This document shows positions 4,779-47,672 of a stretch of DNA of 64,000 bases, one piece after another. This DNA comes from Escherichia coli. GTDB lineage: Bacteria; Pseudomonadota; Gammaproteobacteria; Enterobacterales; Enterobacteriaceae. Under the pieces are notes generated by a model, which was given only the letters and a program-made list of their open reading frames with translations, was not told where the DNA came from and ran no database searches. The stretch is from assembly GCF_965641715.1 (NCBI RefSeq), contig NZ_OZ282453.1; one strand, 5' to 3'. Every line of letters begins with the position of its first letter. Position 1 is the first letter of the stretch. A program made the translations under genes and the position numbers.

Positions 4779-7142
<2,364 letters not shown>

Positions 7143-43910: not shown

Positions 43911-44288
43911 TCAAATCCCCAGTGAAGTCACCATTGTCCTGAGAACTTGCAGGACGTCATGATCGTAACTTCCATCCAAACCGCGACGGCAAATTGCTTC
44001 TCGTATTACCGGAAGCAGTTCGCTGGAAATCTCGGTGCATATTTCACCTGATAATACGCCTGGCTCAAGTGAGAATATTGGTGAACTTACGGTCTTGGTC
44101 TCGACAGTTTCAGAGTCAGTGCCAACATTATAAAGCTCAACGAAAGCGGTCTTGATTTTCCGGGCCAGATCTTTTGCTGGCTCGCTTGCAATATCTTTCC
44201 CGATTTCTCGCAGCACAGAATGCAATGTATGAGCTGCTGTTTTCTGTACATCAGACGGTAAATCTTTAAATTCCATCGTCAGCCTCAT
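43911..44288 (-). CDS. hypothetical protein in the ydfB/ydfC position of the dicB operon
   Basis: 125-aa ORF whose start overlaps the ydfA stop (ATGA); K-12 has two short genes (ydfB, ydfC) here. Confidence 0.5.
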   Translation of the reverse strand: MRLTMEFKDLPSDVQKTAAHTLHSVLREIGKDIASEPAKDLARKIKTAFVELYNVGTDSETVETKTVSSPIFSLEPGVLSGEICTEISSELLPVIREAICRRGLDGSYDHDVLQVLRTMVTSLGI

Positions 44289-44440
44289 CAGTCAGTGTTT
44301 CTGGCTAACCAGCAACGCGCGCCAGATTCGGTTTTAAACGTTTTGCTTTTGGTATATGTCATCGCGGTGAACGTACCGTCCTGGTTGGGGAACACGCCAC
44401 ATACCAGAGATTCGCTGTTGCCAAGATCGATAGTATCCAT
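44288..44440 (-). CDS. ydfA: DUF1391 small protein YdfA-like
   Basis: Internal Met of ORF 44288..44596 gives 50 aa, MDTIDLGNSESLVCGVFPNQDGTFTAMTYTKSKTFKTESGARCWLARNTD; first gene of the early-left operon. Confidence 0.7.
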   Translation of the reverse strand: MDTIDLGNSESLVCGVFPNQDGTFTAMTYTKSKTFKTESGARCWLARNTD

Positions 44441-44632
44441 GCTGACCTCATTTCCCCTTAACGCCGGGGTAGCGGAACTGTTTGCTGAGAACACCGTGCG
44501 GTGTCTTGATGGAAGTAATTTAGTTTTCTCATTATTTTTCGTCAAGGTTTTTTTATGAGAAAACTCAAGTATTGGCGCAAGATAAAGCCAATACATTGAA
44601 ATGTAAGGCTTTAAAATTTTGTGAAGGGATGA

Positions 44633-45040
44633 TTATTGATGCTTGTTGCGTTTGCGAGCCTCTAATAGCTCGGTGAACAGGCGATTAAAATTCTCAACGC
44701 GGGCGCGGAGTTCGCTGAGTTGTGCTTGTTGCTCTGATTTAGGAAGTGCGCGATACAAACGCAGCATCTCTAACTCATCTTCCGATAAGTCTAAGGCACT
44801 ATCGAGTGAAACAGGGGGAGCTGGTGTTTTGTCCTCGTCGCCAAACAGTATCCAGGTTGGTGAACATTGCAATACCTCGGCGAGGCGATGCAAATTTTGC
44901 CCGCGCGGGGCTGTATGGTCACTTTCCCATAATGAAATTGATGAGCCAGATACGCCAGCAGCTTTGCTTAAACCGTTTTGACTTAAGCCTACCTGCTTAC
45001 GTCTTTCTCTAATGCGTTGACCTAAAGTTTTCTCGTTCAT
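44633..45040 (-). CDS. dicA: prophage repressor, DicA-like (XRE-family HTH)
   Basis: ORF trimmed to MNEKTLGQRIRERRK... (135 aa); HTH QNGLSKAAGVSGSSISLWE; C-terminal half ...LQCSPTWILFGDEDK... matches recalled DicA closely. Confidence 0.85.
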   Translation of the reverse strand: MNEKTLGQRIRERRKQVGLSQNGLSKAAGVSGSSISLWESDHTAPRGQNLHRLAEVLQCSPTWILFGDEDKTPAPPVSLDSALDLSEDELEMLRLYRALPKSEQQAQLSELRARVENFNRLFTELLEARKRNKHQ

Positions 45041-45117
45041 ATTTAGATATCTTAATAACCCTTGACTTGAGATTCCTTGAGTGATTAGCATTGAGAAAAC
45101 TCAATATTGGAGGTGCG
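45041..45117. promoter_or_regulatory. divergent immunity promoter/operator region between dicA-like and dicC-like genes
   Basis: 77-bp intergenic region with perfect palindrome attgag-aaaa-ctcaat (about 45090..45105) and repeated cttgag elements, SD ggagg for the rightward gene. Confidence 0.5.
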
Positions 45118-45345
45118 ATGTTTAAATCAGACGTAATTAATTTTTACGGTACGAAAGCCAAAGTAGCGAAAGCTGCTGGCGTTGACCCATCTGCTGTTTC
45201 TCAATGGCAAGAGCTGGTTCCTGAAGGTCGCGCGATGCGTCTACAGGAGGCATCTGGCGGCGAGCTTCTGTATGATCCCAAGGTTTATGACGAATATCGT
45301 AAGACGAAGCGGGCGGGGCGGTTGAACAATGAAAATCACTCCTGA
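45118..45345 (+). CDS. dicC: Cro-like regulator, DicC-like
   Basis: 75-aa ORF from ATG 45118 (six-frame ORF began at an upstream TTG) with strong SD ggagg; divergent from the repressor. Confidence 0.8.
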   Translation: MFKSDVINFYGTKAKVAKAAGVDPSAVSQWQELVPEGRAMRLQEASGGELLYDPKVYDEYRKTKRAGRLNNENHS

Positions 45346-45850
45346 ACAGGCTCGTGAGGCTCTGGATGCCTGGATATGTCGACCAGGAATGACACAGGAG
45401 CAGGCGACGATATTAATCACTGAAGCATTCTGGGCTTTGAAAGAGCGCCCGAACATCGATGTTCAGCGTGTCACAGATGAAGGTGGCGCGGTTGATCAGC
45501 GAGCGCTTGGCGTTAATCGAGTGAAGATATTCGAACGCTGGAAGGCTATCGACACTAGGGATAAGCGTGAAAAGTTCACGGCGCTAGTGCCTGCAATTAT
45601 GGAGGCTATCCGGATTAATGATTTCAGGTTGTATCGTGAAATTAGTGACGGAAAAAGCATCACGTACATGATCGCCGGGTTAAACAAAGAATATGGCGAT
45701 GTGGTGGAGTCCGGACTGCTTTTTGCTGATCCTGCCGTAGTGGATCGTGAAACTGACGAACTTATAGAAAAAGCAATTGCTTTCAAACTTGCGTATCGAC
45801 AGCAATACCAACAAAAAGCTGGATGGAATTATGAGCCTTCTTTTTGCTGA
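45329..45850 (+). CDS. YdaT-like prophage early protein
   Basis: 173-aa ORF directly after the cro-like gene, the position YdaT occupies in Rac-type prophages; weak recalled similarity only. Confidence 0.55.
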   Translation: MKITPEQAREALDAWICRPGMTQEQATILITEAFWALKERPNIDVQRVTDEGGAVDQRALGVNRVKIFERWKAIDTRDKREKFTALVPAIMEAIRINDFRLYREISDGKSITYMIAGLNKEYGDVVESGLLFADPAVVDRETDELIEKAIAFKLAYRQQYQQKAGWNYEPSFC

Positions 45851-46796
45851 ACGCCCACTGGTTATAAACACACAGCTTGCGATGAAGATTGGCTTAAATG
45901 AAGCCATTGTGTTGCAGCAGTTGCATTACTGGTTGAGAGATACCAATTCCGGCATGGAATGTGATGGTGTTCGCTGGATTTACAACACAACGGAACAATG
46001 GCTGGAACAGTTCCCATTCTGGTCAGAGTCAACGTTAAAGCGCGCGTTTGCAAGTCTGAAAACGCTGGGGCTTTTGCGTTGTGAAAAGCTCAATAAATCA
46101 AAGCGCGATATGACCAATTTCTACACGATCAACTACGGGAGCGAGCTTTTAGATGGTGGCAAATTGAGCGAATCCATCGGTTTAAAATGCGCCGCTCCAT
46201 CAGGTCAAAATGACACGATGGAAGAGGTCAAAATGAAACGCTCCATTGGTTCAAAACGACCCAATGTCATCGGGTCAAAATGGCCTGATGATCTTACAGA
46301 GAATACAACAGAGATTACTACAGAGAATAAAAACACTTTTCGTCCGGAAGCTTCGCAACCGGACCCGCAGACCGCTGAACAGGATTTTTTAACCCGGAAC
46401 CCCGACGCGGTTGTGTTTAGTGCGAAAAAACGCCAGTGGGGTAGCAGGGAGGATTTGGCGTGTGCGCAGTGGATTTGGGGGCGGATCGTGAACCTTTACG
46501 AACAGGCTGCCAGCGACGATGGAGAGATCATGCGACCAAAAGAGCCTAACTGGACAGCCTGGGCCAATGACGTGCGCACAATGCGGATGCTGGATGGCAG
46601 AAGCCACAGACAAATTTGCGAAATGTTTGGTCGGGTACAGCGAGATCAATTCTGGGTAAAAAACATCATGAGCCCGTCAAAACTCCGCGAAAAATGGGAC
46701 GAACTGGTCATCCGCCTGGGACGTTCACCTGTACAGCGTTGTATGAATCATATTTCTGAACCGGATACAGAAATTCCGCCTGGTTTCAGAGGATAA
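45831..46796 (+). CDS. phage replication initiation protein (O-like / DNA-binding replication protein)
   Basis: ORF 45777..46796 trimmed to ATG at 45831 (MSLLFAERPLVINTQLAMKIGLNEAIVLQQLHYWL...), overlapping the upstream stop; N-terminal HTH-like segment; position after cro/ydaT. Confidence 0.6.
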   Translation: MSLLFAERPLVINTQLAMKIGLNEAIVLQQLHYWLRDTNSGMECDGVRWIYNTTEQWLEQFPFWSESTLKRAFASLKTLGLLRCEKLNKSKRDMTNFYTINYGSELLDGGKLSESIGLKCAAPSGQNDTMEEVKMKRSIGSKRPNVIGSKWPDDLTENTTEITTENKNTFRPEASQPDPQTAEQDFLTRNPDAVVFSAKKRQWGSREDLACAQWIWGRIVNLYEQAASDDGEIMRPKEPNWTAWANDVRTMRMLDGRSHRQICEMFGRVQRDQFWVKNIMSPSKLREKWDELVIRLGRSPVQRCMNHISEPDTEIPPGFRG

Positions 46797-46836
46797 GTTT
46801 TGATTTCAGGTCATGAGGTAATTTTAAGGGGGACTT

Positions 46837-47238
46837 GTGGCAAAAGTTTTTACACAAGAAGAGCGGGAAAAAATTAAAGGGCAGGTGGTGGAACTCGTGC
46901 GCCAGAGCGGTCGTGAGACGTTACGGCAACTGGAAGCTAAAACAGGTGCGACTAGATATCTGATGAGCGTTCTTGCCAGAGAGCTGGTAGCCAGTGGCGA
47001 TGTATACAACTCCGGCTACGGGTTATTCCCGTCTGAACAGGCGCGTAAGGACTGGCAAAACGCCCGCAAAAAACTATCGAGGGCAAAGGTGAAGAAAACA
47101 GCTGTGGTTGATCCGGACCTTATCTGGTCGTTACCTGATGGAGAAATACGTCGCTACGACAGTCGCCTAAACATAATCTGTCGCGAGTGCCGGATGAGTG
47201 AAGTTATGCAGCGCATACTGGCATTTTATCAGGGATAA
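46837..47238 (+). CDS. hypothetical protein, possible winged-helix DNA-binding protein
   Basis: 133-aa ORF with GTG start preceded by strong SD (taaggggg); segment TLRQLEAKTGATRYLMSVLARELVASGDVY resembles a wHTH. Confidence 0.5.
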   Translation: MAKVFTQEEREKIKGQVVELVRQSGRETLRQLEAKTGATRYLMSVLARELVASGDVYNSGYGLFPSEQARKDWQNARKKLSRAKVKKTAVVDPDLIWSLPDGEIRRYDSRLNIICRECRMSEVMQRILAFYQG

Positions 47239-47611
47239 TGTTAGGTATTTTAGACGTTACTAGATTAAAAAGCATTAGTTCAGGAGTGAATTGACATTCT
47301 CATTTTTCATGGCACAGGGTAGATCTGGCGTGGTTGTCCGCTTTGTGCCAAGAGCGGACGTTGGTATGCAAGAGCCCTCCAAAAGTTGATGGTTGGTTTG
47401 CAGGGGGGCTTAAAGAAACTGCACTTATCAAGTTGAAGTTCTGTATTCAGCGAAATCGTAGCACTCTGACGATAAGTAACTCCGGTACTCCGCTCTTCGA
47501 TGAAGAACCAGAGTAATCCCCCCGAAAAACCAGCGCATCAAAATTGGATCTTCAGCGGTAGCTTATCGGCTATCGGAAGTACAGGTGTGGATTCGTGGTG
47601 AATTGCTTTGA

Positions 47612-47646
47612 TAATAAACGATTAATACGGAAAAACGTATTAATCA
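47612..47646 (-). terminator. hairpin terminator downstream of the 449-aa orphan gene
   Basis: Perfect inverted repeat attaatacg-gaaaaa-cgtattaat about 30 nt past the stop, followed on the transcribed strand by a U-rich stretch. Confidence 0.5.
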
Positions 47647-47672
47647 TTTATTAGCTTTTAGTAAACCACAAT

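Follow-up and report, generated by a model that had tools for sequence, protein, structure and literature searches.

Does the gap between two convergent genes of a phage early region hold an element with a function of its own, or what else is to be found there? In a 64,000-nucleotide stretch of Escherichia coli DNA (RefSeq contig NZ_OZ282453.1, here termed the window), this question is raised by positions 47239-47672, exactly 434 nt, which separate open reading frames (ORFs) at 46837-47238 (+ strand, 133 aa) and 47673-49022 (- strand, 449 aa). A sequence-only reading had described a convergent intergenic region in a phage early region, and both points hold, the first by the ORF coordinates, the second by a replication module that is 99.8-99.9% identical to that of the lambdoid Escherichia phage mEp460_ev081. 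Of its three proposals for the content of the gap, namely a small RNA, an origin-like element or the remnant of a lost gene, only the last was borne out, and for part of the gap. According to our analysis, the gap is with good confidence not a functional unit but the place where the 3' end of a horizontally transferred defence cassette meets a lambdoid backbone. From left to right it comprises flanking backbone, the border repeat of the cassette, filler, the scar of a gene and a terminator; the border repeat had been overlooked. The cassette is of a known type, the Z/fun-type inverted-repeat cassette, found here in a lambdoid phage with the anti-phage defence gene PD-T7-1 as cargo.

The cassette and its palindromic borders

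The cassette spans 47336-49300 (1,965 bp) and is bounded by 34-nt inverted repeats (47336-47369 versus 49267-49300, 82% complementary). Each repeat holds a 24-nt palindrome of the form GTCCGCT-N10-AGCGGAC, type A on the left and type B on the right, with different centres (GTGCCA in A, GAGCGA in B). Within the 64 kb the motif pair was found solely at these two sites, with 0.05 matches expected by chance. Inverted copies of this palindrome delimit the cassette, A lying inside the gap and B at the far end. As RNA, palindrome A (47336-47359) folds into a hairpin of -15.3 kcal/mol (z = -3.1 versus shuffled sequences), which had gone unmentioned before.

BLAST comparisons revealed the same borders, 47336 and 49300/49301, whether the host phage was lambdoid, P2-like or from Morganella. 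The cassette of a Yersinia P2-like phage is 98.9% identical and sits between the tail-fibre genes and FI; a Morganella phage carries it with the same borders at 96.1% identity, and several IMG/VR contigs contain it with the same two borders. The gap part alone (47336-47672) is 98.5% identical in Yersinia phage vB_YpM_46 and 94% in Morganella phage IME1369_01, in each case beside the 449-aa gene. Comparative alignment finds the gap conserved, but solely as part of the flanking cassette. A cargo bracketed by the palindrome pair, together with transfer borders that coincide with the repeats, places the element among the Z/fun-type cassettes. A transposon was also considered and rejected: inspected by eye, the junctions in the P2-like and Morganella phages showed no duplicated target site.

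The 449-aa cargo protein had been called an orphan. It is identified by homology as the defence protein PD-T7-1, with a full-length match to the PADLOC profile PDLC04073 (E=4.2e-157; positions 2-448 of the 452 in the profile align with residues 8-447). Vassallo et al. (2022, PMC9519451) isolated PD-T7-1 and validated its role in defence, and PADLOC catalogues it as a one-protein system.

On the backbone side, positions 47300-47366 were matched in 1,961 of 5,426 complete E. coli genomes, most of them without the remainder of the gap. Alternative occupants after 47366 in E. coli include an SDR oxidoreductase with a regulator, a BCCT transporter and a 279-nt stub. Since different genes follow 47300-47366 in most genomes, 47239-47335 is backbone and 47336 onward is imported cassette. 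The left junction (...gcgtggtt followed by GTCCGC) was found before at least eight different cargo sequences, and the right junction, B followed by tagaaggttagc, is common to prophages with other cargo. In no E. coli genome were the flanks found directly joined as an empty site; the smallest occupant, of 279 nt, still keeps A and a degenerate B, so that the backbone always holds the repeats. This lambdoid site lies between the DUF977 gene and hok/sok, and in locus L004 of our collection it is filled with tandem cassettes.

The features of the cassette and its left flank are as follows (positions of the window; L018 is a P4-like integrative island described below).

46837-47238, + strand: DUF977/Ren-like exclusion family gene, 133 aa, in the backbone outside the cassette (Pfam DUF977, E=6e-27; PHROG 142 'Ren-like exclusion protein', E=1.9e-44)
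47239-47335, no strand: backbone DNA downstream of the DUF977 gene, kept in Qin/Rac-type lambdoid prophages regardless of cargo
47336-47369, no strand: left terminal inverted repeat, with core palindrome A GTCCGCTTTGTGCCAAGAGCGGAC at 47336-47359
47360-47415, no strand: 'A-extension', a conserved non-coding module inside palindrome A (GTTGGnnTGCCAGAGCCnCTCnAAAAGTTGATGGTT...GCAGGG, ~55 nt)
47416-47531, no strand: unassigned stretch of filler, confined to hairpin-bounded PD-T7-1 cassettes, holding most of a 60-codon ORF
47532-47611, + strand: alpA pseudogene remnant (Phage_AlpA), last 26 codons and stop, by homology to L018 AlpA
47612-47653, no strand: AT-rich 18-bp hairpin (arms 47612-47629 and 47636-47653), terminator common to the convergent alpA and PD-T7-1
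47673-49022, - strand: PD-T7-1 anti-phage defence gene, 449 aa, cassette cargo (PADLOC PDLC04073)
49019-49123, - strand: remnant of a 5'-truncated ribbon-helix-helix (RHH)/HicB-like gene, 34 codons; an intact copy precedes PD-T7-1 in L018
49164-49191, - strand: putative promoter-like site in front of PD-T7-1 (TTAACA-16-TATAGT, agreeing with the consensus at 10 of 12 positions; also kept in L003, L016 and L018)
49206-49250, + strand: first 14 codons (MAGIQHNQTHPKLT, then a stop) of a 95-aa P4-like island gene, compared with the L018 ORF at 2363-2650 (MAGIQHTQTRPKFTW...)
49267-49300, no strand: right terminal inverted repeat, with core palindrome B at 49277-49300 (- strand GTCCGCTTTGAGCGAGGAGTGGAC)

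Scars and a terminator inside the gap, and the RNA and origin readings

Between palindrome A and the stop of PD-T7-1 lie ~170 nt of non-coding filler, the 26 alpA codons and the AT-rich hairpin. The key to the latter two is L018, in which a P4-type integrase, an AAA_25 protein and an intact 77-aa alpA accompany a PD-T7-1 homologue of 86% identity. Its gene order is int, alpA, hairpin, PD-T7-1 and an RHH gene, with alpA converging on the defence gene. Frame 1 of the + strand of 47532-47611 reads QRIKIGSSAVAYRLSEVQVWIRGELL, of which 22 of 26 residues are identical to the C-terminus of the intact L018 AlpA, and the DNA homology between L018 and the window, passing through the hairpin, has its limit exactly at 47532. 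Against Pfam PF05930 the remnant aligns to profile positions 31-51 (E=0.003, 17.7 bits) and stays below the 21-bit gathering cut-off because only 21 profile positions are left; for the intact protein of L018, E is 8e-15. In an E. coli chromosome, NCBI PGAP annotates the corresponding stretch as an incomplete or truncated helix-turn-helix regulator. The assignment to the AlpA family is based on homology to intact members and on the same position and orientation as alpA in L018. As with AlpA regulators beside P4-type integrases, the stretch is homologous to their C-terminus, and the intact arrangement int-alpA-hairpin-PD-T7-1 exists in L018; it differs from them in that 26 codons are left, without a start codon and without the helix-turn-helix part. 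By eye, frame +2 had seemed to hold an N-terminal half resembling AlpA; this found no support in Pfam or BLASTP and was dropped. In all six frames of the gap, the AlpA C-terminus was the only stretch to score for coding potential.

A strong hairpin had been noted in the gap, and it is indeed present, with 18-nt arms that are 94% complementary. As RNA it reaches -16.2 kcal/mol on the + strand and -18.7 kcal/mol on the - strand (z = -6.6 and -7.1 versus shuffled sequences). For the + strand a 10-pair core followed by the T-rich tail ATTTATTAGC is predicted, as in an intrinsic terminator; on the - strand the stem is equally strong, without a clean U-tract, and the hairpin probably terminates PD-T7-1 in that direction. 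One stem pair is changed from A-T to G-C on both sides in L003, L013, L014 and L016, a compensatory change in four relatives from which we conclude that the stem is maintained. In L018 the hairpin sits between the intact alpA and the PD-T7-1 homologue; judged from this homology, it was inherited together with the two genes. The GC-rich segments reported for the gap are so only in relative terms, with 45-50% GC at 47300-47600, but 25% at 47600-47699; the neighbouring 449-aa gene ranges from ~29 to 46%.

The A-extension recurs, ~84% identical, beside palindrome A in ~110-kb Klebsiella phage-plasmids and other contigs with unrelated cargo (besides 47360-47415 of the window, copies are at 3025-3080 of L006 and in L133 and L072). 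Every reading frame is shifted by indels, and no compensatory pairing was seen among the relatives compared; it could be an accessory site. For the filler we found no homologue beyond the cassette copies, no Pfam match in the three + frames and no PHROG match in six frames, and the P4-like relative lacks this stretch. The 60-codon ORF of the sequence-only reading does exist (47334-47516, + strand, TTG start), but it is broken by a 1-nt indel in four of eight distinct tail variants (L003, L013, L014 and L016) and has no match in Pfam, NCBIfam, PHROG or PADLOC. With the frame not preserved in relatives and no family match, we rejected it as a protein-coding gene.

Upstream of PD-T7-1, further pieces of the island can be recognized, the DNA homology to L018 spanning 49116-49251. 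The intact 64-aa protein encoded in front of PD-T7-1 in L018 (2783-2977) matches HicB (E=1.9e-6) and RHH_1 (E=7e-5) and has a palindromic upstream region. Relative to L018, a 165-nt deletion, common to the window, L003 and L016 among the aligned inverted-repeat-bounded copies, removes the 5' part of this gene. A partner of PD-T7-1, either a small regulator or an antitoxin-like protein, may thus once have been present and been lost from these phage copies. The stretch at 49206-49250 appears, from its similarity to the L018 ORF, to be another gene fragment captured in the cassette. We take the central and larger part of the cassette to be a decayed piece of a P4-like island, enclosed between the A and B palindromes.

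Could the 337-nt tail downstream of PD-T7-1 nevertheless be a functional non-coding RNA, either a small RNA derived from the 3' untranslated region or an antisense or antitoxin-like regulator? It accompanies the gene in every palindrome-bounded copy with 91-100% identity, and the whole tail folds better than shuffled sequences on both strands (z ~-5.3 to -5.5). This fold signal comes mainly from the two palindromes, however, and long-range pairs are not kept in relatives, the predicted G6/C6 pairing being maintained in neither L014 nor L016, so that an RNA structure of the whole tail was set aside; among the eight distinct tail variants available, structural covariation was limited to one base pair, in the terminator hairpin. 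A scan with Rfam 15 over 44000-52000 (E<=1, permissive filters) returned sok, a weak isrK-like match and a chance snoRNA, none of them inside 47239-47672. No sigma-70-like promoter site was found in the gap either, and its sole terminator-like hairpin is the one of the two convergent genes. Moreover, L018 has an 86%-identical PD-T7-1 but lacks 47336-47531, with an intact alpA in that place, and the catalogued system consists of a single protein. We therefore regard an RNA function of the tail as quite improbable.

Still less speaks for a replication element of the phage, whether origin-like or bearing iterons, and this explanation is practically negligible. The gap does adjoin the replication genes and contains the very AT-rich stretch at 47600-47699, but this stretch is the terminator hairpin, and 47336-47672 is imported DNA that is missing from sister prophages with the same replication genes. 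The gap contains no DnaA box and no tandem repeats, its sole direct pair being weak (21 nt, 71%). A search for iterons came up empty in the gap and instead pointed to the O-like replisome-organiser gene (45777-46796), ~1 kb upstream, where five direct repeats of ~23 nt (TCAAAATG-type) follow each other at 23-24-nt spacing (46161-46290). The origin of phage lambda sits inside its initiator gene O. By analogy, these five iterons are likely to be the replication origin of the phage.

Just past the right border, a hok/sok type I toxin-antitoxin system is found at 49597-49771 (Rfam sok, 115 bits, E=2e-26; mEp460 has an annotated MokW). The isrK-like match at 49930-50011, located between hok/sok and the rem/Q genes, reaches 25.7 bits (E=0.022), below the gathering score of 50; this stretch ends in a good terminator hairpin and could be a prophage small RNA of the Gifsy IsrK type.

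A family of A/B palindromes around phage cargo

Exact-pattern scans of viral contigs yielded more than 200 loci, and the numbers given here refer to a survey set of 218, of which 217 come from phage, prophage, viral-contig or phage-plasmid records. Palindromes facing inward form 90 pairs, and 89 of these consist of one A and one B. They enclose 0.4-5.4 kb with cargo of 53 protein clusters. Many representatives match defence models, among them PD-T7-1, PD-T7-3, Old, DRT UG17 (a reverse transcriptase), DarG, AriA, LmuB and AbiLi, and Pfam domains found in the cargo include RelA_SpoT, Macro, TIR-type and GmrSD. The cargo is found in both orientations relative to A and B (39 versus 35), but the orientation is fixed within each multi-member cargo cluster, so that there is no sign of inversion. 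Across 497 distinct contexts, conservation is limited to the palindrome and 2-3 nt on each side.

Outward-facing neighbours are in 49 of 60 cases a B and an A that are 11-18 nt apart, with a spacing of 18 nt in 43 of them. This B-linker-A unit is the joint between tandem cassettes, as seen in L004 at the lambdoid site. The joint (L004 3959-4024, and ~48 other loci) is a unit of ~66 nt comprising an inverted B, a linker of 11-18 nt (mostly 18, consensus ~CTTCAnCnCAnT) and A; a single long, imperfect hairpin could form from it, much as in an attC site or a REPIN.

A pair of palindromes is also present in the Qin prophage of E. coli K-12 MG1655 (L341), where flxA is bracketed by A (4982-5005) and an inverted B (5973-5996). 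The A copy lies in the annotated ydfV coding sequence, and RefSeq annotates neither palindrome. In a scan of genomes, the palindrome was found in many Enterobacterales and in several other groups, mostly alphaproteobacterial metagenome-assembled genomes (MAGs). Dense arrays of copies in the same orientation occur in L318, L319, L321, L329, L232 (Hyphomicrobium MAG), L267 (Nitrosospira MAG) and L290 (Rhodospirillum MAG), the last three being alpha- and betaproteobacterial MAGs. The loop variants of these arrays (GTGCCAA, GGGTCAA and ACCCCCGAA) are carried on the same palindrome arms.

The closest known counterpart is the pair of inverted repeats around fun(Z) in P2 and P2-like coliphages, for which, according to a review (PMC8987985), site-specific recombination was proposed by Nilsson, Karlsson and Haggard-Ljungquist (2004). 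Phage P2 has fun(Z) bracketed by an A palindrome, GTCCACTCTGTGCCAAAAGCGGAC, 61 nt past gene G, and by a degenerate B in inverted orientation ahead of the pF promoter. The repeats belong to the same sequence family as those of the window, the PD-T7-1 cassette occupies this very P2 hotspot in Yersinia phage vB_YpM_46, and the proposed role, a site-specific exchange of lysogenic-conversion or defence genes, is the same. The copies in the window differ in that they lie in a lambdoid phage and bracket PD-T7-1. In our sample they also occur in phage-plasmids, in tandem arrays with a fixed linker (11-18 nt, mostly 18), with two centre types and around more than 50 cargo families.

The locus from G to FI has been described as the second defence hotspot of P2 (Vassallo et al. 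2022, PMC9519451). Rousset et al. (2022, PMC9122126) analysed P2 and P4 hotspots and left the exchange mechanism to future work; palindromes or inverted repeats are not mentioned in that paper. None of the relevant papers of the literature searched quotes the palindrome sequence. With phage morons and the defence hotspots of prophages, the cassette shares the layout of a self-contained unit (putative promoter, defence gene and terminator) between conserved phage genes, and cargo that is interchangeable at one site. Whereas the hotspots of the two studies are defined by conserved flanking genes, the borders of the cassette in the window are set to the nucleotide by a repeat.

Discrete cassettes with short palindromic recombination-type sites are also known from integrons (attC) and from the pdif modules of Acinetobacter. 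The pdif modules, like engineered exchange with heterospecific lox or FRT sites, moreover share the arrangement of two inverted sites that are, as we infer for A and B, mutually incompatible. In contrast to integron and pdif systems, no integron integrase and no XerCD-like arm sequence is present here, and integron cassettes carry one attC, whereas cassettes of the window type have sites at both ends.

Cassette exchange or passive borders

All this raises the question how the cargo is exchanged. The palindromes are laid out as 9 + 6 + 9 nt; the centre does not vary within a type and differs between the two types. In this respect they resemble, by analogy, the core site of a tyrosine recombinase in two incompatible variants. 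Clues also come from variation within the palindrome. Position 8 of palindrome A tracks the backbone, the fraction of identical pairs being 0.80 where the backbone is shared, 0.20 where the cargo is shared and 0.30 for the background. Position 17 tracks the cargo, with corresponding fractions of 1.00, 0.30 and 0.35. Palindrome B shows a similar split at positions 8 and 24. Since position 8 goes with the backbone and position 17 with the cargo, the exchange is placed inside the palindrome, and we consider the palindromes to be the exchange points at which cargo is swapped between phage hotspots.

The mechanism we have in mind is as follows. Because their centres differ, each type would pair with its own kind alone, A with A and B with B, and with such matched pairings the segment between A and B could be swapped in a double exchange. 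A circle with the B-18 nt-A joint could also insert, which would explain the tandem arrays seen elsewhere; circular cassettes with this joint would then be the intermediates. The enzyme would probably act in trans. On this proposal, a natural cassette-exchange system, with A and B as its two incompatible sites, would move defence genes among lambdoid phages, P2-like phages, phage-plasmids and chromosomes. We put it forward tentatively only.

Several of our own results weigh against such a system. The pattern at positions 8 and 17 is expected as well if crossovers fall anywhere within 24 identical nucleotides, and is no proof of a central crossover. Double changes in the stem are no more often compensatory than the transition bias predicts, so that the active form may be a duplex, a cruciform or a single strand. 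No recombinase linked to the palindromes was found in the loci searched. Same-orientation arrays of palindromes, like those of repetitive extragenic palindromes (REPs), occur in some genome loci; in L318, the only one with its genes listed, 8 copies are spread over 6.5 kb between ordinary genes of the chromosome, an arrangement that suits a structural repeat no less than a recombination site.

The only small recombinase nearby is a 200-aa intK-like tyrosine recombinase, present in 12 of 219 sequences (the 218 loci plus the window) and in 3 of 120 genome loci; being rare overall and confined to few loci, it is unlikely to be the general enzyme, but it is still a candidate. This protein, which comprises the catalytic domain only, is of FimB size and is annotated as 'site-specific integrase', occurs as cargo at the same lambdoid hotspot (L004 6005-6607, L005 4968-5570, L222 and L302).

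A serious rival is that A and B are structural repeats like REPs or their mosaic elements (BIMEs), acting as insulators, terminators or stabilisers of mRNA. They would then be passive borders, the cargo being swapped by ordinary or phage homologous recombination over 24-34 nt. What recalls the BIMEs of E. coli is the alternation of two types of short imperfect palindrome, inverted relative to each other and 11-18 nt (mostly 18) apart, in intergenic positions and at high copy number in some genomes. The arrays between chromosomal genes in L318, the presence of the motif in alphaproteobacterial and many Enterobacterales genomes, the lack of a recombinase that co-occurs with the sites and a position-8/17 linkage that fits evenly spread crossovers all agree with this explanation. 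It meets difficulties in turn. For efficient recombination of the RecA type, the minimum length is at or above 24 nt, which puts the palindrome at or below what could be used efficiently. The sequence is unrelated to that of E. coli REPs, which are normally species-specific, whereas here the palindrome, loop included, is nearly invariant in the 497 contexts, drawn from viral contigs and genomes of several bacterial classes. Furthermore, the Enterobacterales copies sampled lie largely in mobile elements, where they bracket accessory genes. No U-tract follows the palindromes, and the stem covariation expected of a hairpin acting at the RNA level is not seen. We rate REP/BIME-like borders as a possible but doubtful explanation, much as we do the cassette-exchange system.

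What is to be learned from the gap? By itself it is ordinary, consisting of junction DNA, a gene scar and a terminator. It marks, however, to the nucleotide where a validated defence gene, PD-T7-1, entered a lambdoid phage, and the paste marks are the same inverted palindromes that were described in 2004 around fun(Z) of P2, as summarised in a review (PMC8987985). In our sample, more than 50 families of cargo, with many known defence systems among them, lie between such palindromes in several phage types, as does flxA in the Qin prophage of K-12. The part worth following is the wider family of palindrome-bounded defence cassettes and its putative enzyme. A site so short and sharply defined makes the question of exchange at prophage hotspots directly testable, and, if true, the A/B cassette-exchange system would supply the missing mechanism for the turnover of cargo in the defence hotspots of prophages.

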